Origin: a virus
Strand: one strand, 5' to 3'
IMG/VR virus record: IMGVR_UViG_3300045988_015843
Length of the DNA stretch: 64,000 nucleotides
Made by a program: the position numbers and the translations under genes. Below the pieces are notes generated by a model. It ran no database searches and was not told the origin of the DNA. It saw only the letters and a program-made list of their open reading frames with translations. How positions within the stretch are numbered: the first letter of the stretch is position 1; every line of letters starts with the position of its first letter. Shown in pieces: positions 23,235-64,000 of this stretch.

Positions 23235-23259
23235 TGAGAAAGATTATTAATAAAATTTT

Positions 23260-30855: not shown

Positions 30856-30856
30856 T

Positions 30857-31051: not shown

Positions 31052-31121
31052 ATGGGTGCAAGAATTCGACATACTATATTAAATGATCTTAAGAATGTGG
31101 ACAGCGATACTGAAGTGGCTG

Positions 31122-31772: not shown

Positions 31773-31773
31773 A

Positions 31774-32935: not shown

Positions 32936-32954
32936 ATCTGTCATAGCTAAGATA

Positions 32955-33830
32955 ATGGCTGATTCTGACGCATCAGAGGTTCGTAATAGAATATCAGATA
33001 TACGAGAATGGATCTTTGAGGCTATTGAGAAGATTGGTGCTCCAATGTAGTATATTAGAAAAGAGTCTGGTGTAGATGAGCCGTTACTCAAGCTTATAGA
33101 TTACCAAGTGCCAATCCCTGATGATCTTATCCATTTAGATACTGTAGCATATTCTAACACGCCTAATGGTCCGTGGATACCTGCTAGAAAAGATACTTCG
33201 GATATACACCGGTTTAAACACGGTATTGTACATAAACCTGAATATGTGTATATTCCGCATGACAATGCGAATAAGACAATACCTGATAAGATACGAGTTG
33301 CTCCTGAACATCAGGATCCTGCACACAAACTTATAACATCTCAATCTCAGTTGTTGACTATGAATGGTCATAAAGCATTTCATCAGTTAGCACGTAATAT
33401 ATAGAGTAGTCCTACGTATTTTATTAAGCCAGGATGGATCGTTAGTAATAAAAGAGACGGTTTTATTAAACTTGTATACAAATCTATCGCAACAGATGAA
33501 CGTGGATACCCTCTTATACCAGACAATGCAGCTTATCAAGAAGCTATTTATTGGTACGTAATGATGAAGCTAGCATTCCCTAAGTTTATGAAAGGTAAGC
33601 TTGGAGGTCGTAGTGTTTACGATAATAGAGTGGCTTATACTCATATACAGCAACAGTGGGCTTATTATAGAGAACAAGCTTATGCTGAAGCTATGATGCC
33701 AACACAAGATGATCTTAGATCAATTAAAAATGATTGGCTAAGATTGATACCAGATATTGATGCAGACGATTATTTCTTCAAACCCACTGGCGATAGAGAA
33801 TTAACTTATAACGATAGCTATTATGACTAA
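32955..33830 (+). CDS. head-tail adaptor or connector-like structural protein (291 aa, 2 TAG)
   Basis: ATG 32955 is in frame with ORFs 33108..33404 and 33561..33830. Function is assigned by position only. Confidence 0.45.
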
Positions 33831-33852
33831 TACAAATACTCAATAGGTAAAC

Positions 33853-36800
33853 ATGTTTTCTGGTGGTATGGATACTGATACTTCAGACATGTTTATTGAT
33901 AAGAATAGATACCGCATGGCTAAGAACTTGAGGTTTGTAACAGACACTCAGTCTAGTGGCGGAGAATTACATGCGGTACAAGGATTTAAGCCTGTACTCA
34001 AAGGCTTATTGCCAAACGTTATTGCAACAACTGTTGTACGTAATCTAGGTGTTATTGTATAGAAAACGCCTAATGATGACGAGTCAAAATGGTGTGTTAA
34101 GACATTTGACAACAACAAACCGATTTAGCTAAAAACAGTCTTCTTATGTAAAGAAGAGATTGGCTCAGATAAACCCAGTGTATTAGGGTTATACGAAACA
34201 AATAAGATCTGTAAGCTATATATTGCAGATGGAGTACATCCATTGATGATTATAGACTTACTCCCTAAAAAAGAAGTAGTCCCTGTTAACATAGATGAAG
34301 TTGCGATATACTCATCTGTTGTGTTAAACAAACCTATTATCAACGGTTTTACATCTGGATCTCTTAAATCAGGATGCGTATCGTATGCATATAGATTGTA
34401 TGGATTATATGGTCCTGGAACAGAGATGTCTATACCAACGAGATAGCTTTAGATTCCAGAGAAACCGTTATCTGGAAATTAGTTGAAGGGTGCTAAGAGT
34501 GATTACGCAACAGGATGCGGAGTATCAATAACATGTAATTTAGATAATCCTGTTCCTGATAAATTTGATCACATTCTTATATACAGAATATCATATCAGG
34601 TACAAGGACAACTTCCGTTAGTAGAACTCATATACGATGGTAAGCGTACTGGTAATAGCGTAAAGTTCATAGACTCTGGTCAGAAAGCTCTTGGTACATT
34701 AACACTGGAGGAATACAACAGTGTATCTGGAAATCATATTATCCCCAAAATCATTGAATCTAAGAACGATTATTTGTTTGCCGGAAACATTAAAGAACAG
34801 CAACACGATTTGTTTGAAGACTATGACACACGAGCATACTCATTCAATCCTCGTGGAATTGCTTATTTGTATGATGCGTCTGGTGTAAATAAGATCAATG
34901 TGACAAGCTCTACGTATGACACTGTTAAGCCTACTGGAGACTGTTTCAATATGTACAACGATATGTCAACAGAACCTCTTGATGATCGCTATAATTATAT
35001 AGACGGAGATGGTTCTTATTGTAGATACGACATAGATAAGTACTATGGCGGTACTGGTGTTAATATATCTTGGAGGTTCGTAACAGCATCATTAGTTGGA
35101 GATGCAAATGTATCTGTGCTATCAACAGCTCCTAAATATGGAAATGATGGTATTGGTACTAGTTCTATATGTATCGATAAGAACACCAATAAGAGTACTG
35201 ATGTTACAAAACCTGTTGTATGTGAATATTTAAAATATCACAACGATAATAGCTCTGAAAATGCACAATATGATACATCTGAATATGTTAGTGTTAGCTC
35301 AAGTTTATCGTATTCTGATGCAAAGACATCTATGTTATTCAGATCATTAAGACGAGATGAGTTATATAGATACGGTATTGTGTTATATCATAAGAATGGA
35401 TCTGCATCTAACGTCAAATGGATTGCTGATATACGTACTCCTAATATAACATGGGATGGTTGTGAAACATTCTATGCTCGTGGTAAGAATGGAAATAATC
35501 CAGAAGATCTTATTGTGAGACCATTGGGTGTTGAGTTTGATGTACGCAATCTGCCGGAAGACTGTGTTGGATACGAGATTGTTAGATGTCAACGTAAAGA
35601 GTCTGATATAGCAACAATATCACAAGGAGTTATATCAAGGCCTATTGCTGAACAATATTCGCCAGGGCTTGCATCAAGACCGACTACAGCTGGTTCTACA
35701 GTATATACTCCGAGTGGATTTATAACAACGAATCGATATTGGACTGGTAATGATGCTTATGCTAGAGTACATAGTGATGCAGATAGCTCTGGCTGGGAAG
35801 CTGATAATTTTGAAAATAACACAATATATCAGTTTATATCACCTGAAGTATCTTATTTGAAAGGGTCTATAAAGGATTTTGATAACAACACATCTTTATC
35901 CCTAAACCCTGTAAAATATATATTTGGAGCAAGTTCTACAACCCTTGGAAATACGTACAACCAATATAAAACAAGCCTTGCGTATGGTGGTAAGAAGTAT
36001 CGTGGTATATATCCATCTGCTGGTAATGGTAGATTTGCTTGTGGCTATGACACATTCGTACAATCTGATAATGGGCAGAGTCCTGTATACAAAACTCTAA
36101 GCAGAGACGATGTTGATGCTAATGCTAAGTCTAATGTGTTATTCCCAACGCTTTGTTGTAAAAAAGATGGTATTGATATTGTAAACTCATTATATAAGTT
36201 CAGATCGACATTTGAGCTATCTAGAGAAGGTGGTTTGTCACAAGCAGGTCGTGATGACATTAGTACAGATGCATATGGTAAACATGGCCAATACACAGGT
36301 GTAACTCCATCTTATGGAAACATATATATAAACAATAACGGTATTCTTAGTAGAGGTGTCTCATGGGTATCATCTACCGGAGATGAAATTGATGTTACCA
36401 ACGGAGGATTCCAAACTGTACGAGATGCTACATATATGTACGTAAAACTATATGAACAAAGTTCTAATGTTTGGTCGCGTGTACATAATGCAAATCATAT
36501 TGGGCAAGCTGGATATATTAAAGACGATAAAGCTATTGGATATGTACCTGTATATAGAAGAATCACCAACAGTCTTAAGTTCTCTGTAAAAGACTCTGTA
36601 ATACCAAAAGAGTTTAGCTGGGATGATTATGCATCACGAATCAAAGATACTGCAAACTGGACTAAATCGTTCAATGATAAAATAGATGCTATTGGTAATA
36701 CGAACTATTGCAATTATGTATCTGGTGGTGGATTCTCTCAAAACCTAGAAGCTAAAGATGGTGATAATTTCGTACGAGATTGTTAGTTATATGGCCCTGG

Positions 36801-42500: not shown

Positions 42501-45500
42501 ATGCGTAGAAAGAAACACGGTGACGTCTTAGATCCAACGATACATGTTGGATATGAGTTACTTAAAAATAGAGAAGCTATTAACTATGCTGTAGCTGCTC
42601 ATGAAAATGAATCTAAAGCAATAAGGCGTAGCTACACGGAAGCTTATGCTGAGTTAAATAAAAAACGTGCAAATGCTGTAAATACGCTTATTAAATCCGA
42701 TAATCCAGAAGAAGTATCATTGGGTAAACAGTTGCAAGCAATGTGGAAAATGCAGCCTGATAACGACAAATCAGATGATGCTAAATCTGCTCTTGTGGAC
42801 GTACTTAGTGGTGGAATAAATGCTGATTTAAATTTATCAGTACTTTCGCACATAGACGGTTTGGGATTAAACAAGCTTATTACGCCTGATAATACACTCT
42901 CATATCTCAGTAGGCTTAATTCAACACAAGCTGATTCTGGAGTTGGTGCCTTGCAAAGACTTAGTAAGTATGAAGATCATATCAACAATTACTTAAAAGT
43001 CCTTGATGCTAAGAAAAAGATAGAGTATCTTGAACAACAAGAAGCTATTCTGAATGATCAAGCTATTAAGACGTCAGATCCTAAGATGAAGCAGTCGTAT
43101 TTAAAGCGCTTGTATCAGGTGCGTGATTCTAAATACGCACAAGCAGATATTTTAAATGCGTACCAAAAGGATGTTGATATACTTGAGAAAGCAGACCCTA
43201 CATCAGCTGGTGCAATGATTGATAAGACCAGAAAAGCCATTGAAGACTTTTTTAATCCCATGTGGGAAACAACGCCTTTGCGAGATGTATTGAATGATGC
43301 AAAAGCACCATTGTACGATTTAAAATCAAAGAGTGATGCTGAAAAACGTAATGCATTGCAACAATCATTACGTAACATTGCTGACATCAAGCCATTGTTA
43401 CAAGCTAATGTTGATCGTAATCTAAAAGATGCTGCATATTATGAACGAAGAATAAGCCCTGAGTTTGTTGCTAAAAGAGATACTCCAGGTATGGACTTTT
43501 TTGATGCAGATACTTATTTATATAAGATGTCTGGTGTAATGGGTTCATCTGGTACATCTTGGAGAACTCAAATTGCATCTGCTGTTATTGGTGCTGCAGG
43601 TGGACTAGCAGCCTCGTTTACAGGAGGTGCATCTGTTGCAGCAGCAGCTCCAATAGTATTTGGATTGAATTATGCTGCTGGTATTGATGAGAACCAAGCT
43701 GAAGTTGCAACAGCTGCTCGTGAAAAGTTTACGGCAATGCTTGGTGGTGAAAACAGTCCTAAGTATAAGCAGTTTATAAAAGATGGTCGTGCTCAATTAC
43801 CTAAGAACATATCTGTTCCAGATTCTAGGATTGTTGATATGTATCTAACCGGTTAGATTGTATCGAATAAATCTGATATAAATAGAGCTAAGGTTGATAC
43901 TCATAAAGATATTGAGGCTTTGTTTACAAAAGATATGGTTGCCACTACAGCAAACAATCTAATTAATACTGTGTTGGAAGTAATGCCATTCGGTAAGAGT
44001 GTCTCAGAAACAATGGGTCTCAAAAACTGGAAGTTCTATAAGAGAGCTAGCGCAATACCCAGATACTTACGTAAAAAAGGTGGTCTTGCTAAAGAAGCTT
44101 ATGAAATAGGTTCTGCATTTAAAGCTGGTGCTAAAACTGGTTCTAAGTTGTTTTCACCACTTGGTGTTGGAGGAACAACTATTGGTGCAGGTATTGGTGG
44201 AGCTACAAACACTGCGTTTAGATATATAGGAATGCCGTTCGGAGATCCTGGTTTTAAAAAGCTTTGGGGTAGTATTACTGACAAATTTCATAGAGTGGTC
44301 AATGCAGTAGACAGAGTAAATATCAAATGGTTGAAGAAGTTTAATGCTAAACCTGCTAAAGGAATTCTTGGTGATAGATTTATCGAGATGAACTATTTTC
44401 AAAACAGAAATTATGGTTTGGAATTAGCTAAACGTCTAGGTATATCTGGTGTTTCAGAAGGTGTTGAGGAAGGTAAACAGTATTAGAATGCAGAAGATTT
44501 TAAGAAAGGTTATGATGAACGTCAATTAAGAACTGACGTTATAAGTCTTGCATTCGATGATTTCTTAACAGGTCTCGATGTTGGTAGAGATATACTTTCA
44601 ATACCACTAGATCCTATTGGTATACTTAAAACTAAAGATAAGGATAGACTTGCTGAGGTTAAGGGCGGTATGTTAGCTGGTTTAACACACGTCGGTTCCG
44701 TCGGCATTATGAACTCTGTAAGCCCGTATCTTGAAGAGAAAAGTGCTAATAAGTTCTTAATTGAGAACATGCTCACTGAAAATGTTATCGCCAACGACAA
44801 GTTAGATAAGCTTATGCATTATTCTAATTCGTCGAGAGAACAGTCTGGCATATGGGATAAAATAAAAGCTGGTGTAAAACAAGGAATAACACGCTCAAAC
44901 AGACTACAGGCCCTTGAAAAAGCTTTTGCTAATTTTAAGGAGCTGAATCAAAAGGAATATGAGAATACTGGTGACTATATCACATCTCCTGAGAATATAG
45001 ACAAAGAGTTTGCTGACTTTAGAAGAGCTGTTGGATTAACTAGATCTACACGTATGCAAGAGATGGCTGAACGTGCTGGAGTTGACACTAATAGTGATGA
45101 CTATGGCGCATTTGTTGCTACGTATATGATGGCTGCTGACAATCTTCTTGATAAGTCAAAACAGTTTGCTAAGAACGAAAGTGAGCGTAATACTGAAGCT
45201 AATAAGATACTAAATAGTATTAGTATTGTTAATGAACAAGTACTTGAGGACGCTGGTGTACCTAGAGCTTTATGGAATGATCCTAGATTTAATGGTGCAG
45301 AACATGATTTAAAACGACCTTTTATTGAACGTCTTGCCAGATTACAAGCATTGCTTGAGACTAAGCAGGAACTTGAAGATGCTCTAAAAGCTGGTGCTAA
45401 TAGAGCGATTATGCGTAAATACATTGACGGTATTGAGCATCAGATTGATATTGTAAAAAATGGACAATATCAAACAGATCCTGAGACTGGTGAACAGGTT

Positions 45501-48500
45501 AGAGTTGGAGGATTATCTGACCTTGCTCAACGACTTTATTCTGCAAAAATCGGAGTTGATGACAAAGGTTATAATCTACATGTTGGAGAATCTATTAATA
45601 CTCTTGATGATATTGCAGCAGTATCCGTAGATCAAGAAGCTCAAGATAAACTTGCTGATATATACAGACAATCATATCTCGAACAATTTAACATGGAAAA
45701 TGCCAGTGCTGCATTAGAACAGATTACTGGTACCACAAAGATTGTTAAAGATGAGAATGGAGAAGACAAAGTTGTTGTTGATAAACCGAGTGGGTTTAAT
45801 ACTATTTGGGATAAGATAAAGGAAGCTCGTAATGACAACGATGTGTTTTGGAATGAGCTTACATCTGATGCGTTTAAGACGGATGAAGAGCTTGAAGCCG
45901 ATAAAGATGCTGGTGAAGTTTATGAAAGTGGTTGGAGTAAACTACGGAATATTACCACAGAATACGCTCTCGATGAAAAAGGAGACCGTATTAAAGCGGA
46001 TGAAAACACTAAACTAAAAGACGATTAGACTGTAAGTCAGGACGGGTACGTATTAAATATAACAAAAGAGTCTCCCATTAAAGAGCGTTTGATATTTACT
46101 CCAGAAGATCAGGACGAAGTGTCGAAATCTAATGAATATCAAGAAACTATTGAAAGTATTGCACCCGATATTAAGATTGCATATGGTTATGAAAATAGTT
46201 CCAATATAGGTTTAGTAACACAACAAGTTGGCGAAGCAAAACAGCAATTGTTAGAAGCTAAAGAGTCTGAGAAGCGTGCTAAAGAAGCTGCTAGACTCAG
46301 AGCTGAATTGAAACGTAAGCTTGAGAAGGAAGCTGATGAAAAACGCAAAGCATTCATTAAATCAAATCCTAAGTACGAAGGTAAATCTAACGAAGTAGTT
46401 GATGCAGCTATTGCTAAGCATGAGAAGATAGTACAGAGACGTAAACAACGTGAACAAGAACGTGAAGCCAAGGCTCTTGCGAAGTAGATTGAAAAAAATA
46501 AGCTTACTAGAGTTGATGGTAAAGTTCATATTGATAAAAAAGGTATTTCACATAAAGTATATTAGAGAAAAGATGGTACTTATGTGACAGTACGTTGGGA
46601 CGAACTTGGTAATCTTAAACAAACAGTTGTCAATAAAAACGATATTATCTCTGAGAAACAGGGCCTTATAAACGATGCATACACAGAACTTGTCAAACTC
46701 ATAAAAGAGGTTGACGGACATAACGGCGATGTGATGCGTGCGATACTGTCTAAGATATAGATCTCAGATCTTTCAAAGAACGGTATTCTTAATACGTATA
46801 CACAGCTTTACAAACTACTAAAGGTTGCTGGTAGAGCAAACTCTATTGACATCTATGAGGCTGTTGTTATGCTTGGATATAGGTTAGCATCTACAGGATA
46901 TGTGTGGAACAGATCTATGTCTGATCACGATGTTATTGATAGCAATGATATTGAAAATGATTATGTTTAGAATGATAAGTTACGTATTGATGAACAACGT
47001 TTGAAGTCATTAGATGCTCCAATCATTTATCACAATGGCAAGATTGTAAGTAATCCTACTGCAACTGTCGAACGTGGTATGTCGTTATCAGATGCTATTA
47101 AAAAGGCTAGGTCTGGTGACAAAACGATTGTTGCTAAACTCGTTGAATACAAAAAATATCTGTCTGAAAATTTAGAAGCTGCTGTTGCAGATATACAATA
47201 TCCTGGAGATGCAAACGCGGCAAAGTTGATTGAGAAAATCGATCACGAGTTAGATGAACTAAACAAGAGTCCTGAACAGAAAAAGATCGATAAGATCGTT
47301 TCAGATAAAGGTTTAACTAAAACAGATGATGTTTATACGTACAAAGATGGTCGTCAAACACCAGTATACTTAGATAAAAATGGAAAGAAATGTATATTAT
47401 CTAAGTCTAAGAAAGGTTATCGTGTAAACTATACTGTTAAATTTGATCAGAAACCTGCAACTAAACCTGAACCTGCTCAACCAGCGCAACCTACTAAACC
47501 TATATAGCCTTCTAAACCAGAACAACCAACACAGCCTACTCAGCCTACATCTACCAAACCTGTTGATAAACCTGTAACCACGGATAAGACTACGCTTTCT
47601 CCTCAACAAAAAACTGTCGAAATGCTTGCTAAAAAACGGGCTGAAGACAAGTTAAAAGTTGGTGTTGATGGTTACGAATTAACAGGACAGGCTTATTTCA
47701 TAAAAGTTGATGGTAAAATACAACGATTCAGACGTGTTCATGCTACTATTCCTGCACAAACTTTAAATCTTAAGAGATCTATTGATCGTATGATCAATAC
47801 TTTTGAGTAGATTTATAACGAACCAATGTCTGATGAAGAGGTTGTTTAGGAGGTAGTAAACATAATAGAAGATGTCATAAAAAATGGTGCGTATGTAAAG
47901 CTCGAACGTGATCGTTGGAGCAACAGCCATGTCACAATTGTTGATTTTGAGAAACAACCAGGCCTTGAGAGACATCCGCTTTCTGCGCAAGCAATTCATG
48001 ATCTGAATGTATACTTGAAATATCTCAAAGAAGCAGGGCCGTTTAATTATGATGAGTTTTTTGGTATAGTTAGTGATGTTGCACACATCATAGCATCAAC
48101 AGAACCTGGTACATCTGTACATGTTGGTAATGTAGTAGAAGGTGTTGTTAACCATGTCGTACAACGTGTATTGGATCAAGGTTATGAAAATATTGTTGGT
48201 ACTGAAGAGCAACTTGTCGATGAAATACTTAATACAAGATCTCATGACAGTTTTAAACAATCATCAACTCCTGAATCTGGTGAATACGGATCTAACCGTA
48301 CGTATGACGAGTGGTTTAATAAAAACAGAGGCGTAGTAAAGAATCTTGTATTAGATGTATTAAGATAGCTTAAATCTTTCCACGACTTAGGTTGGGTTGT
48401 ACAATCTGAAAAGCTTACATTATATGGGGAGTTTAAAGGTGTTGGTCGTGTTGCTGGAGAACCTGATCTTATTGCTATTGATCAAGATGGTGGTATCCAC

Positions 48501-51500
48501 ATGATCGATATTAAAACATCAACAAAATCATTCTACGATGGTGAAGGTTATTCTAGTAGATATGTTGATGTTTATGGTGCTGATACATGGGGTCAGAGAT
48601 TTAGCACACAAACGCAATACTCTAATCAACAGACTGCATATAGAATGTTGATGAAAGCATCGTTAGGATTAGATACAACTGCTGAATTAATGCCGTATGT
48701 TGTAGACTACAACTACGGTACTGGACTGATATCAAATGTTGTGCTTGAGCCACGTATTCCTATTATATATTCTGATTTTATAGAGGCAATGTTCAATGGT
48801 GTGGAGTATTCAACGACTGAAAACTACACTATGATGTCTGGATTCTCTGAACGATTTGTTCAAGGTATTTTGGATACATATAATACAGCAATAGAAAATT
48901 ACAATAAAGCTGTTTCTGACTTTGAAAGTCAGGTTGGACAACTTCCCAAACAATTCATGTTTGATCTCTCTATTATTGAGTATATGACCCCTGCACAGTA
49001 TACTCTTGATGAGATTCATAGAATAGACGCAAAAGCTAAAAGGTTGTGGGATATTACGCAACAGATACATCATTGTATCGAACAAGCGTTGGCTAATGAA
49101 GAAGATAAAGCCAATGGGCAATCTACTACCGGGTCAAATCCTAAACCTTAGGCTACACCACAGCCTGAAACTAAACCAGAACCTGAAAAACAACCTAACG
49201 CTCAAACAAAGCCTAGTGAACAACCACAAGTTAAACCAAGTGATAGTTCTACAGAACCAACAGGTTTGATTAGACTTTCAGACGGTTAGGTTTATAAATT
49301 CTCAGTTAGTTTCGAGAATCCATATCCGCAGATTCAAAGCGATCGTGCTGAAAGAGATACACAGTTTGCAGCTATAATAAATGCTGCTGACTTTGGATTA
49401 CCTGAAACCACTTTTGCTACGATATCTAATACTGGTAAAAATCTCGATAAGATATAGATTAAGATAACATACGTAGATAGAAAGACTGGTAAGAAATATG
49501 AGTTTGGTAAGACTCTTCCTAATGGTAAGCGAGATTATTTGTTTATAAACTCTGGTAATAACTTACCGGGACATGACGTTACAGCAAATTTCAGAGCGTT
49601 ATATGATCTGGCTATGCAGCTCACAGAGTACAACAAAGCTAATCCTGGCAAGAAAGCTATTCTTCGTGTCACATAGTGGTATCGTACAGATGGTAGGATG
49701 ATATATAAAGAGGAGGATGGTGTTGTGTCTCGTGAAACACATCCTGTCGTAGATCCTAAACTAGGCATTATTACAGACGATCTATATCAATTTAGTGCTG
49801 AAAGCCAAGTTCCTGGTGATACACGTACAATGTTAAACGATATAGGCTTTGTAAAAGATGGCGCTGTTTATACGTATGGCGATAGTAGTACTAGACGTCA
49901 ATTAGATGTTGTACCTAAAGATATCCCTAATGGATTTATAGTATATTCTAAACGTATACCAAGAGCCGAAGCACCTGGTGGATTTAGACGTCTACCCATT
50001 GTACTAAGGAAAAGAGCCCTTTCTGACGGAGATGTTAATTTCATAATGGATGTTCTTAAGGATCCATCATTGCTTGGCCAACCTTATAATGGGTTACATG
50101 GAGCAACGATAGGTTCTATAAGTAATCTTATTTTACCTATTATAACAGACGCTAAGTACCTATCACCTCAAAAGAAGCTGTTTGTAGATCGTGCTAGCAA
50201 TACAGTTTATTATATAACTGCTAAAGAATGGAAAGATGCCAAAGACGGTGTTGGAACACTGAAGGGTTACAACATGTCTAATGAAAGTCATGTTGAAGAG
50301 TTAAAGCAAAGGATAAAAGATTTGTCTATAGAAGTTAACTCTGATATGATGCAATCTAGATTTGGTAATGACACTGATTCAAACTTACCGTTGAAAGCTA
50401 TACGAGAGTGGTTCAACGACAATCCTTCAGAAAAAACATTTACAGTTAGAGGTAGTCTTGGTAATACGTCAATATCATTTGATAGGAGTGATTTCCAAGA
50501 TCATAAGACTGATAACGGCGATGTGTATAATGGATTAAGTGGTGCTGGTTGGTATTTACGTAGTGGTATATTACAAACAAATGCTGTTGGTATTGGTGCA
50601 CCTCACGTTCACATCAACGCAGTTACTATGGACACTAAAGGATATCCGAAAAAATTGTTTAGTAACGGAGCTATTATTGATGATACTACAGAGTCAAAAC
50701 AAGAGCCCAAGACTGAAACTAAGCCTGAATTGAAAATAAATCCAGATTCGAAGAAAAAGCCACCTAAACCTAGTCCAACGAGCGGTGGTTAGAAATCTGA
50801 TTCTGCATTAGGTGCTTTATCGTCACTTCTTGACACGCAAGATGACAATCAAGTCACGACCGATAATATAGATAACCAATCTGCTGATCAACAAGCTTTG
50901 GATAATGAACAGATAGAAGACTGGGAGCTCTTTCATATTGGACGAGTTGCCACAGGTAAGACTATCAATAAAGAGAAAGCTCGTAGACACGCTGAACATA
51001 TTCTTGGAAAAGAGTTTGTTTCTGATGATAGAACATTTGGATTTATTGATGGCGTTATTAAACAATTCGACGATGGATCTGCTGTATTAGGTGTATGTAG
51101 AAAAGATTCGATAAGATTATCATCACTCGCAGAGAACGGTGTTGAATATCACGAGGCGTTCCATAGAATATTCGAGCTTATTATACCAGAGCATTTACGT
51201 GATTCTATATACGAAAAGGTTGCTGCTGACAATGACATAGATTTGAAAAACGATCCTGATTATACGAACCATCGTAAGGTTGCAGAGTTGATGGCCGATT
51301 GGTATTGGGATTATCAAGTTGGACGATTCCATGTTGATTCTTACAACATATTCGCAAAAGCTTGGAATAGAATGCGTGACTTTGCATTACGTTTCACCAA
51401 TAGATATCGTAATGATCGTGCGATATTAAAACTATTCTCTGATATACGTAGAGGTAAGTATGCATCTCGTAAAGCTAATAGTAGTGCTATAAAACGATTT

Positions 51501-54500
51501 GTTACAAACTTTAAAAACAACTTGATGTACAAACAGCATGGTAAGGATTTCAAACACATCGTTGGTGATGAAATGTATTATCATATTGTTGAAAGTGCAA
51601 AGTTCTTCGTATTTACCGGATCTGATATAGCTGTTAACGGTTCAAATATATCTGATTTGAGCAATGCTTTAAACAAAGAAACTATTCTGAAAGGTGCTCA
51701 ACGTCTTGCTGATGCAGGCAATGATATACTCGGAATCAACTTATCTGAAGACCAAAGAAGTGAGGGTCAAAAAGCATTGTTTGAGCTTATAGACAATCTT
51801 GATAATATACAGTTTAAATTAGATCTTGCTAATTCTATAAAAGCTATTAGTACTAACTTCGAACAAGTTGAATCTGAAAAAGCTGATAACGATGCTGATG
51901 CAGGTGATACGTATTCTATAAATCAATCTATAGAAGGCCATATAAAAGATGCCGTCGAATTCGATCCGTTTGAGAAAACGTCTCAGCAGGTCAGATTCTT
52001 CTTTGCAACAATACCAAATCAGAAATGGTCATATATGCCTAGTATACAAAATGGTAGGGTCAAGCTTGTTCGTACTAAAGAACAAGTCTTTAACGAGTAT
52101 GGTTTACCTGAGTTTATACCTGTACGAGATGCTTATAACAAGTTTATAAACACTGTACATAACGTAGATACACTCGATGAACTAATTGATACTCTCAACA
52201 AGAAGGCTCAGATAGAACCGTTCTATGAGACGATTGCTGAGAACATAAAGGCTGTTATGGATAAGCGCATGTCATATGATGGAGATTCTGTCAAATATGA
52301 CATTGATGCTGAAAACCTATTAGTTCAGATAATGGCACAAGCTCGTTCTAATAAGTACAACATGGTTACCATGATGAGCTCTAGTGCTGAAGAAGGTGTT
52401 GATACAACATTCGGAGAGTATAAGACTAGAGTCATGCCTACTGGTGTAGAGTATCAAGCTAGAAATACAGCTATTTCTTGGTCATCTAATTTTGCTAATG
52501 GTGGTACAAATCTTGTTAAGATAACTAAAGTTGGAAAGCGTGCTATAAACGATAAGGATGCTGATGCAGCTAGTACGTTCTCAAACTTTGCCAAGTTCTT
52601 AACTGGTACATATGATAACAAACGTTTATCCTTGAAGGATTTTATACAAAACGCTATACTTGGAAAGCTTGGACTGAAACAATACTTAGGATTACCAGTT
52701 GGAAACAAGATATTTAAGATACAAGATATAGACGATGTTTCAATGCAGTTATGTAAAGAATATATCGTACAACAGTTGAATTCTATGGGTATTAACATAG
52801 AACTCAATGCGTTTAACTATATGCTTGTTGAAAAATACGGTTCTGCTGGTGCTGAAGCATTGTTGAAGATGCTAACATCAACAAATGTTGAGGATTCTAT
52901 GACTACATTCATACAGTTCTTAAATAACATTGTTGTAAACAACCAACTAAATGTTACAGATGACAACAAGTTCTATGTTGGATCTTTGCCAGTCGCACTT
53001 GATTTGATCTATACAAAGTTTGCATTCACTAGTAATCTGGCTAACTGGCAGTATAGATATAAGCAAGCAACAACTTAGTTATCTGTAAAGGGTTCTGGTA
53101 ATAACCTTAAATACTTAATATCTCAAAACAACTTCTTAACAGATAGTACTCGTGACTTCAATAAAAGGGGTCCTCAATTCCAACTTATATCATCTGGTAC
53201 AGATCCATACATCTATTCAACACGTACAGATCCAAATACAGGCCAGTCTATTTGGGCAGGATCTTTTGTATTGCATAGTATGTTAAATAATAGCCAAGCA
53301 TCTATTGAATTACAATCGCTTGATGGATTCCGTACAGACAACAAAGGTGATTATGGTGCAGACTATTTTTAGATGACGAATGACGAGGATATTCTAAGTA
53401 AGATTAGATTCTTGATGGATAATTCTCTCATATTCCAAACATTGTCTGATAAGAAGAGTTATTTCACCGTACATCTCAAAGGTTTCCGCATTCCTGGTAT
53501 TGATTATTCTCACATGTACGATAATTCTGGAAAGGTTGTTGTAGATGGTAATGCGTTAGGTGATCAGATTACCAACGGCAGTTGCTCATATGATATTGCT
53601 GGTTTTGGCACACCTGTATTAATGCAAAGACAAGACGTCATAGATCAACTTTTATCATATGCATATGCTGAGCGTGAAAGTATTATTAAGACTATTAACG
53701 CAATGTCTGAAATGACTGATGATGAGAAGAAGAAGGCTGTTAAAAATTTCTATTCTTCTCAAAACGGTGCTAAATTCTCATCATTGCTTGGAATATGGCC
53801 TGTGACTGAAAGCGGTGTTGGATCATATTTATCGTTTAATAATGAAAAACTAACTCCTAAAAAAGCTCTCGAAAGAGCAGATGAATACTTCTTTGCACCA
53901 ACAGTTGGTAATAAACCAATGACAGAGCGGGCTGCTAATGACTATCGTAGAACTTTAATTGAGCTGAATTTACAAAGGCGTTTAGACGCTATGATGGAAA
54001 ACTTACAACATCGTGGTCTTATTGCAAAAGATTCAGATGGTTATTTAGTAAACAAAGGTCTTCCAGCAGATGCTATTGAATTTATAGCGAAGTCACTACT
54101 TAGAAAACAAAACAAACTCGATGCTACAGGAAACGCTATAGACCAGAACACAATGCGTATGGCAATACATACTGCAATCGGACTGTTTGCAAACGACATG
54201 ATGGTTAAATCTATCATGTCAGTACAAGAAACCGAACGTATTTATGCAGCAAACCCTGCGTATTTCAAATGGAAGTACGATAAGAATACTGGTGAACTAT
54301 CTGATCGTACTGTAGATGAGCTTAAGCGTGCTGGCGGTTTCGTATCTACTGGTATAAACAACTTTATGGAACTTACTAACATTCCTCAACACTGGCTTGA
54401 TAAGGATGGTTAGTTTACAGGTGAATATCGTTGTTGTGAGATTAAAGATGAAGAAGTGGCATCTCCTCAAATAGAGGAAATTAAAACACTAATGACAACG

Positions 54501-57500
54501 TCTGCTCGTGTACAAGCGTTACGTGAACATTATCTAAAACAACAGAAGTCTGATTATGAAGAGCGCATACTTAAGATGAAACGTGACGAACGCCCTAACG
54601 AAGATGAACAGTTATATGAGCGTGAACGTATTGCATAGGATGTTGAAAATAAACTCGCTACGATGAGTGATGACGTCGTTAAGCGAGAGCTTAAGTCATT
54701 AGGTATGTTGGATATTATAGACAAGAAGTCGAAAGCTGCGTATAATAGTTATACAGGAGGCATTGATGTAAATGACGGTGCTGCATATATAACAGACGAT
54801 ATGTGTGAGATGCTTTTACGAATGGTTGGTTCGTATTCGTCAGAGGTGGCCGAAGCGTTTAAAATATTACGATCTACGTCTGTTAAAGATATGCGTTAGA
54901 TTGCAGATGCATATACTAAGGTTATAACAACTGTCATTGGTACATAGAAATATACAGCCTATGGCCGTAGGTAGGATTCTACTGGAAATATTGTAGATTA
55001 TTATCACAAATATGCGCTGTTCCCAATATTCCCAATGCTTGCAACTGGTAAATTAGGAAACATCTATAATATGATGAAAACTAATAATACCGACATGGTA
55101 TTGATTAGCTCTGCTGTAAAAGTAGGAAGCCAAGGTGCTGTAGCTAATCCTAAATGGGATGATTATCGTCAAGATAATGATAAAGATAACAAAGCTAATT
55201 ACAACAAAGACGGTTCGTTAAAGCCATTGTTTTCAGAATCATTTAAAGTCAACCCGTATTCTGTATCGTTTGAATATCTTCGTAAACAGTTAAATACTGA
55301 TCCGAATGAGAAAAAGTATATGAATATTGGTACTTAGACTACTAAGATTGCATTAACAAACTTGAATCTCCATGCACAATATTTAACAAGAAGTGGTGAA
55401 GTTAGATCTGGTTAGTAGATACATGACGATATCATGCAATCTATGAATGCTCTTAGTAATATCGGAAGAGATTAGTTACGGAGCCAATATTTCTTAACAA
55501 ACGATAAAGGATAGTTTGTTGATGAGAACGGAAATGTTGTAGATAAGCCTGTTGTAGATCCAGTTAAGTATTCGAAAGCATTAAAACAAATCATTGGTTC
55601 TGATAAAATAAGTTTGAATTTAGCTTAGGCACTACAACTTGTTCCTTATAAATACGGTAATGGTAAAACTCGTTACAGGCTCAATATGCCTTTAGATGCT
55701 GTACAATCATCTAATTTCTTAGAATCTAAGATTATTTCTAATATAAACAAGTCTGTTATTGATACTAAAACACCTGGTGCTGCATTCATACAACGCTCTG
55801 TGTGGGGTATGGAAGGTTCTACGCTATATGATAGTCGTAAAGGCAATATTGTAAGTGATGATGATATTGCTCCGTCTATAAATGGTGGTAACAGCCTTCA
55901 GATGGTTAATGAAGAGGGCTCTATGGACTGTGTATTATCAGTAGATTTCTTTACAAAGATTCTTGGTGACTTGTTCCATTATACAACTGGTGGCGATTAT
56001 ATACTCGATAGATTTGGAGAGCGTATACCAGTAACCAGAATATATAAAGGCAAGACTTTGTATAAAGTTAAATCTGCAGACATGTTTAACGAAGGTAAGT
56101 TTGTAGAAACATGGGTCGATGACATAGACAATCTTCCTGATGGTACTGAGGTAGTTTACAAGAAAAATAAAACAGAACACCATACACGTAGTTTTGATGA
56201 AGTTCGTCAATACCTGATAGATCAAGGTATGATTGGTCCTAAAGCTAAAGCTAACATTCTAGCTTATCGTATTCCTACACAGGCTCAATCATCGATCCAC
56301 GCATTAAGATGCGTTGATATATTGCCTGTTGTTAACGATACTGTAATGCTACCTGCAGAGTTTACTAGAATTACAGGATCTGACTTTGATATTGACAAAC
56401 TATATTTAACAGCTCTTAATTATCATAATAGAAAAGATGGTGGTGTATCTGATATATACGATGAGGGTACTGAAAAATATTATCAAAACAAGATTGTAGA
56501 TGCATATCTCGCATTGTTGACAGACAGAGCTGACGAGAATTCAAAACCAAGATCGTTTATATCATTACACCGTTCTATTGATAACGATACACAGTTAGCA
56601 TTTGACGCATTAAACGAAATTGGTACAACAGATTCTACCAAGACTGAACAACCATATCAATTCTACGATCTTACTACTCAGACTGGTGTTAAGAATAGTT
56701 ATATAACTGGTAAAATTGGTATTGGCCCGTTTGCATTGAACAACAATAATCACATCTTGACATGGCTATATCATGTTAGCTTTAAGCCAACTAAGAATTC
56801 AATCATGACATAGTTTGGCTTGAATAATCTTGATAATATGACAGATATAGATGGTGATTCTATAATGGGTTGGTTGTCTGCATTTATTAACGGACACGTG
56901 GATATTGCTAAAGATGCGTGGGTTTCTCGTTGTAATGTAAACCCGTTCACATACAATTTAACAAACTTGTTACTACGTACTGGTTGGGGTAAGAATACAA
57001 TATTCTTTTTACGACAACCTATTATGATGGCAATGGCTGATGCATATATGAACGCTAGTTCTGAATATATGTCAGACGGAACATCAAAGTTTAGACGTCA
57101 ACAACAAGCTATAGACGATGTTGTGTTTGGAGAAGATAGTAAATATCATCTTGAAAATGTTGTGGTTAGTGGTAGTACTGTAGCACAATGGTTAGAAGTT
57201 TTTGAAAGTAACGATCCTGAAACAGCTTAGCTTAAAAAGGGTCTTAATGAAGACTTGAAAAAGATACTGACTCGTGAAAATATGCTAGCTTAGGCTAAAA
57301 CACCTCTTGGCAAAATGGGCGATATATAGTTCCAAGCAGCTGTCTATCTTGCATACAAACAGTTCGATAAATACGCAAATGCATTGTCAAATCTAGTAAA
57401 GTATTGTAAGATTGATACTAAGAAACAGGGTAAGAGTATAGCAGAACAACTTGTTTGGTACGAAGGATACGATGATTTGTTTAACAATGGTGAAACTGGT

Positions 57501-60500
57501 GCATTGTTTAACAGAGCGTCTCTTTTAAAGCTTAGAGATGAAAGCTATGTAGGTGTTAAGACTGAAAATGCTATCAATGCTACAAAACATATTATTGAAG
57601 GTCAGTTCTTCAGTGGTTCACATTAGTTTATCAAAGCTATTGAAAATTTAAGCAAGCTTGTTGGTAATGAACATCGTTACGAAACTGTTAATTTTGTCGA
57701 AGCAGCTACAAAAGCTATTAGCGCATCGATCAAATCAGAATACTTTAATTATTATGTCAATAAGCTATTTGGTGATTCTACATACGTAAGAGATCTTGTT
57801 AATGGGAGTTCGGAGCAGCATAACGTAAGATATCATTATGATAAAAAGGCCCCTTATATCGAGGTTGATGAAGATATGATTTATCCATTGAGAACGTATA
57901 TTGGTAAACCGATAAATATTTCATGGAAGACCAAAAGCGGTTCTCAAATGAAAGCATATCCGAATGTTATCGTTGCTATTAGTGGTAATAAAGTATATCT
58001 TCAGAAGGAGATATAGTTCAATAGTAAGGGTAGAAGATCACCTCTTACTGTTGATGCCAATATAGATGTACAATTTACTCAAGGTAATAATACAATATAT
58101 GACCGCATAGGAGCTCTTAAGACTCTTATTGAGAACAACAGTGCTCTTGCAGATCTTAAAGGTAATATATTGTTGCGTGATATAATATTAGCTGCAACAT
58201 AGAAGTATACTCCATCTCATAAACGCATTGCTGGAGAAGCATCTGATACGTATGATGATCTTAAGTTCATTAAGCTTGAAACATTCTTTGAAGATAATGG
58301 AGATAAGACTGATCAGTATATTAGAGCATGGGATTCATTGCTGAGATATACTAATGATAATGAAAGATTGTAGAATGCCATTCGTAAATTAGCAAACGAT
58401 CTTGTTATATACGCATTTATAACATCTGGCGATACTAAAGGATCCACTAAATTATTCCAGTATGTACCTGATTCCTGGAGAAACGGTGAGTTTAATCCTG
58501 AAGGTGTGACATCATATGCTGAATTTATTCGTAATAAACTTGACGAGTTAAATGGTTATGGCGAAACTAAGATAGATCTTGATGATGTTATATTGAATAA
58601 CTGGCAAAATGATCAGTTTGTACCAAGATATCGTGTGGATGATAAGGCTGAATAGCAAAAGCTGACACCTATATATACTGACGGACGTAATACATATGGT
58701 TATCCTGTAGTAATTCAGGGTATGAACATTGAAAAACCTGCGGATAAAAACCATATGCCTAAGGTAAATGTTGTAATAGATCCTACAAAGGCTCCTCAAT
58801 ATATTAAGATAACCCGTGATTATAAACATCGTAATTCACAAAGACAGTATTCTATATACAAGTTCCACTCTGTTGCTCAAACTGCTGATGGAATAAGGTA
58901 TCCTATATACGTTAAAGTTGAACCAAAAGGTATTACTATAAAATCTTCTGGTGGTACGTATATGGTGACAGAATATGGTCGTTCAGACAGACTAGATAAG
59001 GCTGAGAATAGCACTATACCTGAACTGTTTGAGTTGTTATACACAGCTCAAAACTTCCAAGATCAGTTGAGAGGTATGCCTAAGAGTGATCTAAAGGATT
59101 CTAATATATTATAGGACCTTAGACGATTTGCTGAGTTGGACATGGCTGAAAAGATGGCCATCAGTCGTAGATCATATAGTGCTAATATGGACATTGCACA
59201 AACTCAATCTGTTCAATTTAATGATACAACTTAGAATGTGAATGGTGTTACTAACACTGCTGTAAATCCGCTTACTATATCTGATAAAACTGAAGCATTT
59301 GGTGTAACTGTAGATCCTAAGCTTAAATAGAATTACAAACAATGGTTAGTAGATCATCCAAATGGTATTGTTGCGTATAGGATTAATTATAATAACTTTA
59401 ATACTGCTGAAAATGTAAATAAGAATATTATAGGAAATCCATTTGATTGGTAGAAATATGGTCAAGAAAAATCACTATAGATGTTCTACGAATGGCTTAC
59501 TACAGGGACTAATCATGGCGAAGTTTTAGCTACCGATGAATATCGTAATGCTATAATCAACAAGTTGCTAAGTATAGACAAGCCTGAAATTTTATATTAC
59601 AAAGAACTTGGTCATCCTAGTCATGCAACAGTTCTTGGATATCTTATTGAACACAAAGAGCTGTTACAACCTCAATCTCAAGCAAGTACGTCTGTTACCA
59701 GTAGTGCTACTTAGACAAATGATAGACCTGTTAATATATATTTTGGCAATGGTCAAAATGATGAAAATATCGAATTAAGTAATTTTGCAATAAGGCCGTT
59801 TTCGTTTACGCCAAAAGATTTTTATTTCGGAGATGATGCTCGCGAACACCAGTTTTATAGTGTAGAATAGGCGTTTTAGTATTATAAAATAATGGTGTTG
59901 GCGTCTATGTCCGGCTCTTTAAATTATTCGATACCTACAGGTGCTCAAGAGGCTGCTAGAAAAAGTATAAGTGCAAATAGAAACATTTTATTAAAAAGAG
60001 CACGAGAGATATTAAATGCTTCAACTTCTGCGCATGCGAGATATTTAGGTAGACAGCCTCTTGGATTGTAGGATGTATCTTCTCAATTTGGAACTATTGC
60101 CTCTGCCAAAGATATTGAAAAGTCTATATTTAAAGTTTGGGATGAGAGAAGTTCAAAAATAATGAAGGCTCTTATTAAAGCTTCTTTTGAACAGAATCCT
60201 CAAGCAGCTCAAAGACTTCTCGACACTGGTAACGCTACACTCACGCATAACCAAGATAAATCTAAGTGGAAGATTGAATTCCCAAGATTGTTAATGGAGG
60301 TTCGTGATGAGTTACGTAAATCTCAAAGTAATAGTGTTGATCAAACAAGTAGTATCGTAAATATAACCAATGATCCTCAAGAAATTATTAGTCTAAACAA
60401 CGTTGTCATAAGACCATTTGTGCATACGTTCGAAGACGGTAGTAAAAAGGAATTTAAATCTATAGCACAAGCCTTTCAATATATAAAAGCAACGTATGCA

Positions 60501-63500
60501 GATCCTGTTGTTAACGAAAATATAATTAGACAGATAGAACAGACTACAGATCCTTCTGATTTAATAGACCTTGGTGAATTTATCAAACAACTTGATGTTA
60601 AGTCTTGGGATAATGATTCTTATAATATAATGACACAATTAACCAAAGAATCATTTGAACAAAATCCATCTGCTGCTAAGATTTTGACTAATGAATTACG
60701 TAAAATCGGTGTTGACACTTCAAGTAAACCTCAGAGTAATAAATCTTATAACAGTATAACAATAAGCACAGGTTATACAAAAGGTGAACCTGAGGATAAT
60801 CCGAATACAGATTATGTATTTACTGAGAACGCAGAGGCTGCATTAGCTGTATCAAGTCGTGGACACGGTCTGGATAAGAGTGGAATATTTGACCAAGAAG
60901 AATTCCCGTTCAAAGGCAGTGTTAAGTTGAACGTATCTGATGTACATCAAACTAACAGTGCTGCTGTACGTACTGACGCCAAAGGAAACATTACACAAAA
61001 TGCATACGGTATTGTTGTTAAAAAATATCAACATGATGCGAATGGTAAATTTGTAGCACAACCAGGATGTTTTGAAGATACAGATGAAGATTTTAAAAAA
61101 TTCAAATCTATCAATAATATCGTCTTTAAAGACATAGAGCAATCTAAAAACACAAACATAGTATTTCCGTCACAGATCGCTCTTGGGCGAGCTGCGTTAC
61201 CATTGCAATTTGCGGGCTGGTTACACAATTAGCTTGAGCAAAGATTTGGGTTGGAGACTAATATAGAACGATCTAAAAAAGCTTCTTACGAAGGTTATGG
61301 TTTACGTGTAATTGGAGTTGGTACAAAAACTAACACATCTGTTGATACTAACAGCCAATCTAGTACTGAAGATTCTAAACCAAAGACTAATGAAGACAGT
61401 AAGTCTGTACAACAGATTAAATTAACAGCTGGTCAAGAAACTGCTAAGAAAGCCATATTGAACTTTATAAAGACTGCAGATGCTTCCAAAGGAGAGTATT
61501 TCACTCTAACAGGTAAAGCTGGTACAGGTAAGACTACGTTAATACAAGAGGTTATTAGAGAGATTGCTAAAGACAATCCTTATCAGAGATTTGTTGTATC
61601 TGCATTAGCTCATAAAGCAGTACAAGTCATATATGGTAAGACTAAAAAGTCTTCAAAGTTTGTTTCTGCTTCAACCGTAGCATCGTTACTTGGTATGAAA
61701 TTAGATCAAGAAACTGGAAAATTCAAGCAAGTTAAAAGTGGTAAATCCAAGATTAAACCCGGTAGTATATTGTTTGTAGATGAAGCGTCTATGTTGAATG
61801 AACAGAATATAGAATGTTTAATAGATGCTGCAATAAGTAGCGATTCTAAAGTCATATTCTTAGGTGATCCTGGACAACTTCCTCCAATACGAACAGGCGA
61901 TCTCGTTAAGTACGGAACTGATTCGTTATCTCCGGTATTTAAGACCCAAAAGGATGAATACTCAGCAGGTCTTACAGAAAGAATACGACAAGGAGAAGGT
62001 AGTCCGATATTGGATTATGCAGATACGTTCTGGAACTATAGTACAACAGAAGGTTAGACTGATCGACGTGTTAATGACGAAAATATGTCTCGTGTTGAAA
62101 ACGCTCAAGGATCTATTGAGTTTATAAACGAACAACAGGTTGATAAGATAGTACCGTTATTTAAACAAGCTGTTGAAACAAACAATCCTTCATTAGTTAA
62201 GATTGTAGCATATCATAATAAAGCTGTTAAAGAGTGGAACCAAGATATTCGTCGCAGTGTGTATGGTGATGAATATAGTCCGAACCCGTTACCTGGAGAT
62301 ATTCTGATGATGACAGATACATACAATGACCCAACGTCTGATGTTGCAAAACCGTTATTGTTTAATAGTGAAGATATATCTGTAATTAGTACAGGACCTA
62401 TTCGTACAGTAGATGGTATTCAAATCATGGAGACTACTATAAAAGACGCTCGTGGCAAAATGGTCACAGTGCCTTTAATAATACCTACTGCACAGAATAT
62501 AGCTGCGTTTACTGCTCAGAAAAATAAGTTATTTAGTTATGCTAAGTCGCTAAAATCCAAGAATTATAGAGCATATCTTAATGCATTAGATACGGCTTGG
62601 AATTATGGAACAGAATGGGCTCATGTTGAATATGGTTATGCTATAACAAGCCATAAATCACAAGGTTCTACATACGATGTATCTATTGTAGATTCTGCAG
62701 ACATCAACAGTAATGAATTTATGTCAGACATCAGTAAAGCTCGTAGTATCTATACAGCTATAACAAGAGCTCGTAACTCAGCTGTTATCTTACGTGACAA
62801 GCTTGGTACTCTCGATGTTGATCTGAAACAGCTTAATGACCGTATAAACGGTTATAAAGATGGTTCTGTAACACCTCCTGCTCAGATCACACCTGATACT
62901 GTAGATAATGTAGGTAATACATATAAAGAGAATATCGAAACATTGGAGTCTGATAAAACAATATTATCTAATGAAGAGATATTGAAGCTTAGACCATTTA
63001 CTGGTAATGATAAAGCTCCTCGTATAGCTGTTGCGTCCGAACATACTGATCCTGTATTTTTTGCTAAGCATATAAAAGACTTCTTCGATGGTAAAACATC
63101 TGTAAAACGAAAGTTCGGTGATCCAATCACGGCCAAAGACATCGATGCTTTATATATTATAACAAAGCATGATGGCATTCCTTTAAGAACCATTCTTTCT
63201 ATAAAAATACCTAAGATAATACATTTCAGTATAACAGGCATGGGTGGTACTAAATATGAACCTGGTGTTATGCCATATAACGAATTACTTGATCGTATTG
63301 GTGATTATATAAAGCAAGGTCTCGATCCATCTATGGTAACAGTTCGTATTGATCCTATTATACCTGGTGTAACACCTAGACATGTTATTGAAAATATTAT
63401 AAAACGAGCGTCTTCTATGGGTATTAAGAATATAAGATTTAGTGTTATGGACTTTTACTCAACAACAGCTCAGTTTACAGAAGCTGCTGGTTTTGATTAT

Positions 63501-64000
63501 TCTAAATATTACATACCGATGAAGGGTTATGATGGTAAATAGCTTATGACATTGATATCTAGGGACGGAAGATCGTTTTATGACTCTAGTGATAAAAATT
63601 CTCCGCTCAATAGTGCTAGAGGTAGGAGAGTTGGCAACAGCATTGTTGTTACTGTGAGTTATGGAGCTGAGACGAAGATGTATGTTCGTGGCAAAAGTGG
63701 TAAAGTTTTGACGAAGACTATAAATACGTCTGAAATGACCGATGATGCCATTAAGAGTAATACTGGGTGGAATGCTTTAACTGCAGATCAAATCATACAC
63801 GACTAGGTAGCAAACAGAGTAGCTGCTGGTGTATTATTACAACCGATGTATGAAAGACACGCTCGAAAAGAGGTAATAACCAACATTGCAAAAATAGTTA
63901 AAGAATATGGAGATAAATATGGTGTTACGTTGTCGACATGTGCTGAACCAGATATTCTTCCATCTGGAATATCTCATGAGGGTTGTTTGAGCGTTTAGGC
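42501..64000 (+). CDS. giant multi-domain (polyvalent-type) virion protein ORF including the crAss-type RNA polymerase; at least 7166 codons, 3' end outside the window
   Basis: All 24 plus-strand track ORFs from 42501 to 63806 start at coordinates congruent with 42501 modulo 3, and every one ends in TAG. I read every gap in frame by hand and found only TAG, never TAA or TGA. A TAA at 42482-42484 precedes the ATG at 42501. Confidence 0.7.
47622..48700 (+). other. PD-(D/E)xK (RecB/Cas4-like) nuclease domain inside the giant ORF
   Basis: 'GEPDLIAIDQDGGIHMIDIKTS' (48465-48521) gives the D...D-x-K motif, followed by 'QYSNQQTAYRML' (a QxxxY motif). Confidence 0.6.
51150..51164 (+). other. HExxH zincin motif inside the giant ORF
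   Basis: 'ENGVEYHEAFHRIFELI'; the codons cac gag gcg ttc cat lie at 51150-51164. Confidence 0.5.
56262..56396 (+). other. RNA polymerase double-psi beta-barrel catalytic region (DxDxD)
   Basis: 'LAYRIPTQAQSSIHALRCVDILP...AEFTRITGSDFDIDKLYL'. This is the R-x-P-T...S pattern followed by DFDID (56382-56396), analogous to beta-prime 'NRAPTLH...NADFDGD' and to the virion RNAP described for crAss-like phages. Confidence 0.65.
59352..59672 (+). other. DUF4326-like domain inside the giant ORF
   Basis: 'IIGNPFDW.KYGQEKSL.MFYEWL...ILYYKELGHPSHATVLGYLIE' resembles the 'GNPF...Y..WL...L.C.C....CHa.vL' pattern as I remember it. Weak call. Confidence 0.35.
59727..60320 (+). other. NADAR-like (YbiA/DUF1768) domain, copy 1
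   Basis: 'IYFGNGQNDENIELSNFAIRPFSF...FYSVE*AF*YYK...ALIKASFEQNPQAAQRLLDTGNATLTH...LLMEVRDEL' follows the NADAR pattern (LSNF..PF, SxE.YFQ..K, LL.TG...L). Confidence 0.55.
60352..60700 (+). other. NADAR-like domain, copy 2
   Basis: 'IVNITNDPQEIISLNNVVIRPFVH...FKSIAQAFQYIKA...QLTKESFEQNPSAAKILTN' is paralogous to copy 1. Confidence 0.5.
61440..62800 (+). other. SF1 (Dda/RecD/Pif1-like) helicase domain inside the giant ORF
   Basis: Walker A 'TGKAGTGKTT' (about 61509-61538), Walker B 'ILFVDEASML', 'FLGDPGQLPPI', 'YAITSHKSQGSTYDVSIV' and 'IYTAITRARNSAVIL'. Confidence 0.7.
63010..64000 (+). other. DUF1848-like domain inside the giant ORF (truncated by the window)
   Basis: 'IAVASEHTDPVFFAKHI', 'YIITKHD', 'IHFSITGMGGTKYEPGVMP', 'VTVRIDPIIPG', 'IRFSVMDFY' and '...LSTCAEPD...HEGC' parallel DUF1848 landmarks ('ISASRRTDIPAFY', 'FWTKNP', 'FTxTxYGxxxEPNVP', 'WRYDPI', 'ISFVDxY') recalled from memory. 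Confidence 0.45.

Follow-up and report, generated by a model that had tools for sequence, protein, structure and literature searches.

The concept of the polyvalent protein was built outward from the virion RNA polymerase (vRNAP) of phage N4 and its zincin-like metallopeptidase (MPTase) (Iyer et al. 2017, PMC5512222). The polymerase function of Cellulophaga phage phi14:2 has been described by Drobysheva et al. (bioRxiv 10.1101/2020.03.07.982082), who also described a fused 'single huge polyprotein, likely cleaved', and a 2023 review names RNA polymerase genes of up to ~6,000 amino acids (aa) as a hallmark of the crAss-like group (PMC10136315). Here we describe a gene of this kind in a 64,000-nucleotide (nt) stretch of viral DNA (IMG/VR record IMGVR_UViG_3300045988_015843), the whole of which is referred to below as the window. 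Positions 42501-64000 very probably represent the first ~98.6% of one late gene, the giant gene, of a TAG-recoded crAss-like phage that is closest to the Suoliviridae.

The giant gene and the polymerase block of phi14:2 both occupy a position in the late/structural block, and residues ~2997-5340 of the giant gene (51489-58520, + strand) are homologous near end to end to phi14:2 gp66 (gp077 in GenBank), including the DxDxD site. The two differ in how the block is divided: phi14:2 has three separate standard-code genes (gp076-gp078; 1,797, 2,180 and 1,421 aa), annotated as virion proteins from tandem mass spectrometry, whereas the window has one open reading frame (ORF). The HExxH protein of phi14:2 is encoded downstream of the polymerase with none upstream, unlike the HExxH motif of the giant gene. 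The motif of the phi14:2 polymerase's neighbour is shared, however, by the gene that follows the giant ORF in its relatives, and the block therefore holds two HExxH modules, with two of the three phi14:2 positions fused.

With the polyvalent proteins the giant gene shares the joining, in one very large chain, of a virion RNA polymerase, an HExxH module and unrelated enzymatic domains, for which roles in biological conflict are likely and delivery with the invading DNA is presumed. Its polymerase is predicted to be of the two-barrel crAss type, in contrast to the T7-like type of N4, and NADAR and DUF1848, two of its domains, do not occur in the text of Iyer et al. 2017 (PMC5512222). The domain set comprises the polymerase, two NADAR domains, a superfamily 1 (SF1) helicase and DUF1848 by profile match, and HExxH and PD-(D/E)XK by motif. 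The polyvalent-protein concept, which an initial annotation made from the sequence had brought forward, thus fits, since several functionally diverse domains are encoded for one phage polypeptide.

A single selected frame reaches the window edge

From the ATG at 42501 the + strand frame ran for 7,166 codons up to position 63998 and contained 52 in-frame TAG codons and no TAA or TGA, exactly the frame that the initial annotation had claimed. It was closed upstream by a TAA at 42495, and the preceding gene ended at 42484, 16 nt before the start. Across 42501-64000 the two other + strand frames contained 304 and 924 TAA and TGA codons, and from base composition the chance of 7,166 codons without either is ~1e-179.

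The same ORF was present in complete form in three independent IMG/VR assemblies (6,562, 6,607 and 7,079 aa, stitched across the whole gene); all three began with MRRKKHGDVLDP, as does the window gene, and ended in TAA. These relatives, at 88-97% nt identity, were collinear with the window up to 64000 and then continued for 99 codons more, which gives a length of ~7,265 aa for the window gene. As a single ORF under TAG = Gln, 42501-64000 (+) would accordingly hold the 5' 98.6% of the gene (7,166 of ~7,265 codons), cut by the window edge. The frame is no accident of assembly, as all three independent contigs kept the ORF uninterrupted. A gene of at least 1,600 aa (MIIACPNLANPE...) came next in each of the three relatives and overlapped the giant stop by 4 nt in a different frame. 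This gene matches the second large gene in every Suoliviridae genome checked and, for example in the stitched UViG_3300029382_000003 (29686-34487), has an HExxH of its own at aa 473, resembling the phi14:2 HExxH protein gp076.

Between the window gene and its IMG/VR relatives the ratio of nonsynonymous to synonymous substitution (dN/dS) was 0.06-0.34 in every 400-codon interval from the first codon to the last, and the frame was preserved through indels in four strains. That the frame is selected as a single unit, as had been suggested, is upheld by these ratios, by the three independent assemblies, by swaps between TAG and CAG or CAA, and by single ORFs in standard-code genomes. Synonymous divergence (dS) along the ORF swung from 0.07 to 1.1 between adjacent 400-codon intervals, which points to mosaic recombination among strains.

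TAG is a sense codon

For the family searches, Q stood for each TAG in the translations. When the codons of four strains were aligned, those opposite TAG were TAG (312), CAG (87), CAA (37), GAG (20), GAA (19) and AAG (15), and CAG and CAA made up 124 of the 249 non-TAG codons that face TAG among these close relatives. Relative to usage in the gene (CAA+CAG 280, GAA+GAG 415), Gln was ~4.7-fold enriched over Glu at these sites. The two NADAR repeats provide an internal check: SVE[TAG]AF[TAG]YYK in repeat 1 corresponds to SIAQAFQYIK in repeat 2, where Q takes the place of both TAG codons. Read-through of TAG is required by other + strand genes of the window too, with 13 in-frame TAG codons in a 1,562-aa gene and 13 in a 1,186-aa gene; their stops are TAA or TGA, and the same rule holds in the relatives. 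In the standard-code genomes cr118_1 and cr50_1, whose giant genes are single ORFs, the window TAGs face sense residues and never stops; the comparison with standard-code homologues, which had been proposed as a check, thus favours a single ORF.

Code-15 gut phages (TAG to Gln) likewise concentrate in-frame TAG in late/structural genes and terminate with TAA or TGA. The window differs from them in that no suppressor tRNA, release factor or aminoacyl-tRNA synthetase was detected in it; lack of a suppressor tRNA has already been reported in a preprint for a Suoliviridae phage.

A crAss-type virion RNA polymerase forms the core

A profile hidden Markov model (HMM) made from aa 2800-5550 of the giant gene and seven homologues matched phi14:2 gp077 with 323 bits in four collinear stretches that spanned aa 85-2055 of 2,180. 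In a direct blastp comparison, 48% identity was found over 73 residues that include DFDID, the catalytic DxDxD motif of the giant gene (aa 4628-4632), which lies at 56382-56396 (+), where it had been placed originally. A tblastn search with the polymerase segment matched the 'putative RNA polymerase' of phi14:2 and of crAss001; its matches in GenBank were to Crassvirales only, the best being cr124_1 of the Suoliviridae at 37% identity. The polymerase was not recognised by PHROGs, and phmmer against PDB sequences returned helicases only, without the gp66 entry. The phi14:2 polymerase match was removed by the bias filter of local phmmer and regained with the family profile run under --max.

Read with TAA and TGA as the only stops, the window is a tight + strand gene array that includes a crAss-type major head protein gene (23254-24783, +; PHROG 11589, E=1e-122). 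The TAG-bearing genes that end in TAA or TGA, this head protein and the Crassvirales-only polymerase matches identify the window as part of a TAG-recoded crAss-like phage, in which the giant gene is the "transcription block" that closes the late genes. No GenBank phage was matched by 42001-64000 in megablast. An exact 47-nt sequence from the window end had no match in IMG/VR, and two TAG-bounded fragments of 485 and 356 aa had none in the contig index.

The DFDID codons are an insertion site in other genomes. A related contig (IMGVR_UViG_3300045988_048007) carries an 879-nt insertion at 8878-9756, inside these codons and equivalent to window position 56387/56388, in which a LAGLIDADG-like ORF is flanked by the two halves of a group I intron (RF00028, 41 bits, E=8.5e-9). 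In cr131_1 this very site holds a 242-aa gene, gp49. No intron is present in the window.

Fusion is the family norm in the Suoliviridae

A giant gene of 4,328-5,801 aa was present in every Suoliviridae RefSeq genome checked, that of cr131_1 being split at DxDxD by the inserted gene. The annotated coding sequences were cr130_1 gp79 (5,801 aa), cr118_1 gp14 (4,946 aa), cr50_1 gp059 (4,774 aa), cr6_1 gp36 (4,400 aa) and cr109_1 gp53 (4,328 aa), and BLAST maps of the window gene to cr130_1, cr109_1, cr131_1, cr118_1, cr50_1, cr6_1 and cr124_1 were collinear. The giant genes of cr118_1 and cr50_1 are written in the standard code without a single in-frame stop or TAG, and their collinearity with the window gene extends over the N-terminal region, HExxH module, polymerase and C-terminal helicase. 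In cr124_1, one TAG-recoded ORF of 5,204 codons ran across the record ends once a 55-nt terminal overlap had been removed. A division of cr124_1 into three separate genes was rejected, as the split arose from joining record ends that share this overlap. RefSeq annotates only the 3' part of the cr124_1 ORF (NC_055899.1; gp01, 'DNA helicase'), and 93.8-101.5 kb of that record is nearly unannotated.

The Suoliviridae giant genes share a locus, which follows a ~1,560-aa virion protein and two ~650-aa genes and precedes a ~1,400-2,070-aa gene and a minus-strand replication block. They also share the collinear N-terminal region, HExxH module and polymerase, and most are TAG-recoded as well. At the C-terminus the SF1 helicase is shared with cr118_1 and cr50_1, and NADAR similarity is present in cr130_1 and cr131_1. 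The differences are those of sequence and length: amino acid identity is only 22-37%, the window gene is ~25% longer than the longest RefSeq gene (5,801 aa), and ~2,850 aa precede its HExxH, compared with ~1,700-2,600 aa in the RefSeq genes. It also combines tandem NADAR, helicase and DUF1848 in one chain, unlike the RefSeq Suoliviridae genes compared.

The initial annotation had regarded the fusion as unusual against separate genes in crAss-like genomes. This view has to be revised, as every Suoliviridae genome examined has the same fused gene: fusion is the norm of the family, and the window gene is the longest version found and not a new kind of gene. A literature search on the largest phage protein returned nothing relevant.

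The N-terminal half carries nuclease-like and zincin-like motifs

The N-terminal module (aa 1-1647; 42501-47441, +) could not be assigned to a family, and aa 1-3800 had no Pfam or PHROG match. The module contains Gly/Ala-rich hydrophobic stretches at aa ~340-400 and 540-580 together with coiled-coil-like regions, and shows weak collinear similarity to the N-termini of the Suoliviridae giant genes; an N-terminal profile had no detectable homology to phi14:2 gp078. It is followed by a Pro/Thr/Gln-rich low-complexity linker, as read from the translation (aa 1648-1690; 47442-47570, +), and similar linkers occur at aa ~2205-2250 and ~2733-2765. These linkers may conceivably serve as hinges or cleavage sites.

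Between the first two linkers, in a module of aa ~1691-2204, lies a PD-(D/E)XK-type motif, GEPDLIAIDQDGGIHMIDIKTS (aa 1986-2007; 48456-48521, +). cr124_1 shares the motif (38% identity), cr130_1 shares part of it, and Pfam PDDEXK_1 matched below threshold (E=0.059, 13.7 bits against a cut-off of 22). The conserved motif and the sub-threshold match are weak indications of a nuclease. The domain content that had been read from the sequence was supported for the polymerase, the HExxH motif, NADAR, the SF1 helicase and DUF1848, and weakly for the nuclease.

A zincin-like metallopeptidase motif region at aa ~2850-2990 (51048-51470, +) was assigned from motif conservation. The window part of the giant ORF has a single HExxH, namely HEAFH at aa 2884-2888 (nt 51150-51164), and YHE(A/G)(F/W)H with a downstream acidic E-x-x-A-(E/D) is conserved in eight homologues at 26-39% identity. 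No Pfam match was obtained for this region, and a profile of it was not significantly similar to phi14:2 gp076 or gp078 in hhalign. A homologue search with the region returned three near-identical fragments only, too few for a deep alignment.

The C-terminal end carries a variable set of enzymes

Downstream of the polymerase, aa 5577-6284 (59229-61352, +) form a variable accessory cassette of ~708 aa, in frame, that comprises a GNPF-motif domain, two NADAR domains and one domain without a family. The cassette was absent from two of the three complete relatives, with ~160 nt in its place, and shortened in the third; in the nearest relative the sequence 5' of it was 97% identical. The GNPF-motif domain (IIGNPFDW; aa ~5602-5740, 59304-59720) stands at the start of the cassette and may be akin to DUF4326. 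Neither this domain nor aa 6070-6300 had a Pfam match. The tandem NADAR domains (aa ~5745-5940 and ~5950-6070; 59733-60710, +) were identified with both Pfam and PHROG: PF08719 matched two stretches with 65.5 bits against a cut-off of 35.1, and still with 60.6 bits on the TAG-free segment, PHROG 1017 matched, and there was a weak match to E. coli YbiA (2b3w). Free-standing NADAR enzymes of phages counter DarTG1, and NADAR reverses DarT-type ADP-ribosylation of DNA. The literature search returned nothing relevant on NADAR in crAss-like phages.

The cassette is followed by an SF1B Dda/RecD-like helicase (aa ~6279-6766; 61335-62798, +), recognised by Pfam (AAA_30, 78.6 bits; UvrD_C_2, 34.4 bits), by PHROG 325 'Dda-like helicase' (261 bits) and by PDB sequences (9kwf, E=2.8e-27; Dda 3upu, E=4.5e-9). 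The same C-terminal helicase is present in cr118_1 and cr50_1. From aa ~6830 to the end the gene encodes a probable DUF1848 domain (62988-64000, +), which is cut by the window edge with its Cys-rich end beyond the window. The window part scored 29.0 bits against a PF08902 cut-off of 30.5, and the complete C-terminus of the relative UViG_3300029382_000003 scored 71.3 bits. The DUF1848 end had no BLAST match in any RefSeq giant gene compared. Particular to the window phage are the size of ~7,265 aa, the DUF1848 C-terminus, which was seen in its lineage only, and the ~708-aa two-NADAR cassette.

Other features of the window

The + strand block starts with genes for an HNH endonuclease (6843-7757) and a dUTPase (7832-8425), both without an in-frame TAG, and a tRNA-Val(UAC) (8454-8530), all on the + strand. 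Upstream of these lies a tRNA-like element (6439-6531, +), which ARAGORN reported as 'tRNA-???' with a four-base anticodon, ggaa, or, with introns allowed, as tRNA-Leu(gag) with a 16-nt intron. It scored below the gathering score of the Rfam tRNA model and, lacking a CUA anticodon, is no evident amber suppressor. In-frame TAG is also missing from the major head protein gene, compared with up to 13 in neighbouring late genes, possibly because the recoded codon is avoided in the gene with the highest expression.

Expression and fate of the encoded protein

We propose that TAG is read as Gln and that only TAA and TGA stop translation, so that the ribosome would make one polypeptide of ~7,265 aa (~800 kDa). 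In its predicted domain order, an N-terminal region of ~2,800 aa that includes a PD-(D/E)XK-like motif is followed by a zincin-type HExxH module, the gp66-like polymerase and the variable C-terminal enzymes. On the model of phi14:2, crAss001 and N4, the protein would be a late product that enters the capsid and is later ejected, along with the DNA, into the host, where the polymerase part would transcribe the early genes. DNA or host defences would probably be the immediate targets of the accessory domains, and NADAR could reverse DarT-type ADP-ribosylation of DNA. The size and linkers of the chain, the HExxH conserved inside it and the occurrence of separate genes in other families make us lean slightly towards a chain that is cleaved, possibly by the zincin module within it.

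Several points weigh against this proposal. The final ~99 codons of the window gene and its stop lie outside the window and are taken from the relatives, and analogy is the ground for a single expressed chain and for its packaging, cleavage and ejection. Gln is the best-fitting amino acid at TAG but not proven: in the standard-code homologues (25-30% identity) the Gln signal fades, and the commonest residue opposite TAG is Glu. Searches of the 64-kb window and of 20 related loci revealed no suppressor tRNA(CUA), about one third of the genome lying outside the window. Single-sequence AF2 models gave a pLDDT of 48 for the nuclease region, too poor to judge the fold, and an unusable all-helical model with a pLDDT of 49 for the zincin region. 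Nor is processing a given, since the N4 vRNAP, despite its MPTase domain, is packaged uncleaved (PMC5512222).

The N4 precedent speaks for a ~800-kDa chain that is packaged and ejected whole, its HExxH module acting on host targets or peptidoglycan, and Drobysheva et al. also consider peptidoglycan digestion for the phi14:2 zincin protein. Such a chain would be about twice the size of the N4 vRNAP, the same block forms several separate virion proteins in other Crassvirales families, and low-complexity linkers lie between the modules. None of these points is decisive, and we regard an uncleaved chain as possible, if rather unlikely. The initial annotation had also raised graded termination, in which partial suppression at the 52 TAG codons would yield nested N-terminal products of regulated lengths. 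No suppressor tRNA was found in the window, recoded phages are thought in the literature to switch TAG decoding during infection, and TAG is unevenly spread, with two in the first 1,000 codons and ten in codons 4,001-4,500, all of which would suit such a scheme. However, 29 TAG codons precede DFDID of the polymerase, the conserved core of the gene, and with 90% read-through at each fewer than 5% of chains would reach it. The TAG codons lie within catalytic domains (aa 4771 in the polymerase, 6519 in the helicase, 5790 and 5793 in NADAR) and not at module borders; they swap freely with CAG and CAA among close relatives, and standard-code homologues have no stops at all, so that nested products are no property of the family. 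Graded termination therefore appears improbable.

Several independent genes might instead share one frame by chance, with TAG stops and internal ATG starts. This is how standard gene callers present the region, in TAG-bounded fragments, and the database homologues are all 245-738 aa long. The TAG codons, however, interrupt conserved domains, two standard-code genomes have collinear single ORFs, four strains keep the frame through indels, TAA or TGA closes other genes of the window, and the base composition makes a chance frame of this length vanishingly rare; we consider independent genes highly improbable. Still less credible is a false long frame from a chimeric contig or collapsed indels. 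Artefacts of joining do occur, as the naive union of the cr124_1 record ends gave a false split, but none was found here, and three independent metagenome assemblies at 88-97% nt identity have the same ORF, start and stop.

Implications for crAss-like phages

A single TAG-bearing gene in the virion-polymerase locus reveals no new mechanism. It extends the known size of crAss virion-polymerase genes from ~6,000 to ~7,265 aa, and it is a worked example of the need for the right genetic code in crAss-like annotation, with public protein databases holding the gene as fragments of 245-738 aa. Near-identical strains have gained or lost domains at the C-terminal end, which is thus a target for the question of injected anti-defence enzymes. 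Tentatively, the virion polymerase may serve as a carrier for swappable anti-defence cargo, namely the cassette and the helicase/DUF1848 tail, injected ready-made with the DNA. If so, DarT-type and other DNA-targeting defences would be neutralised before any phage gene is expressed.

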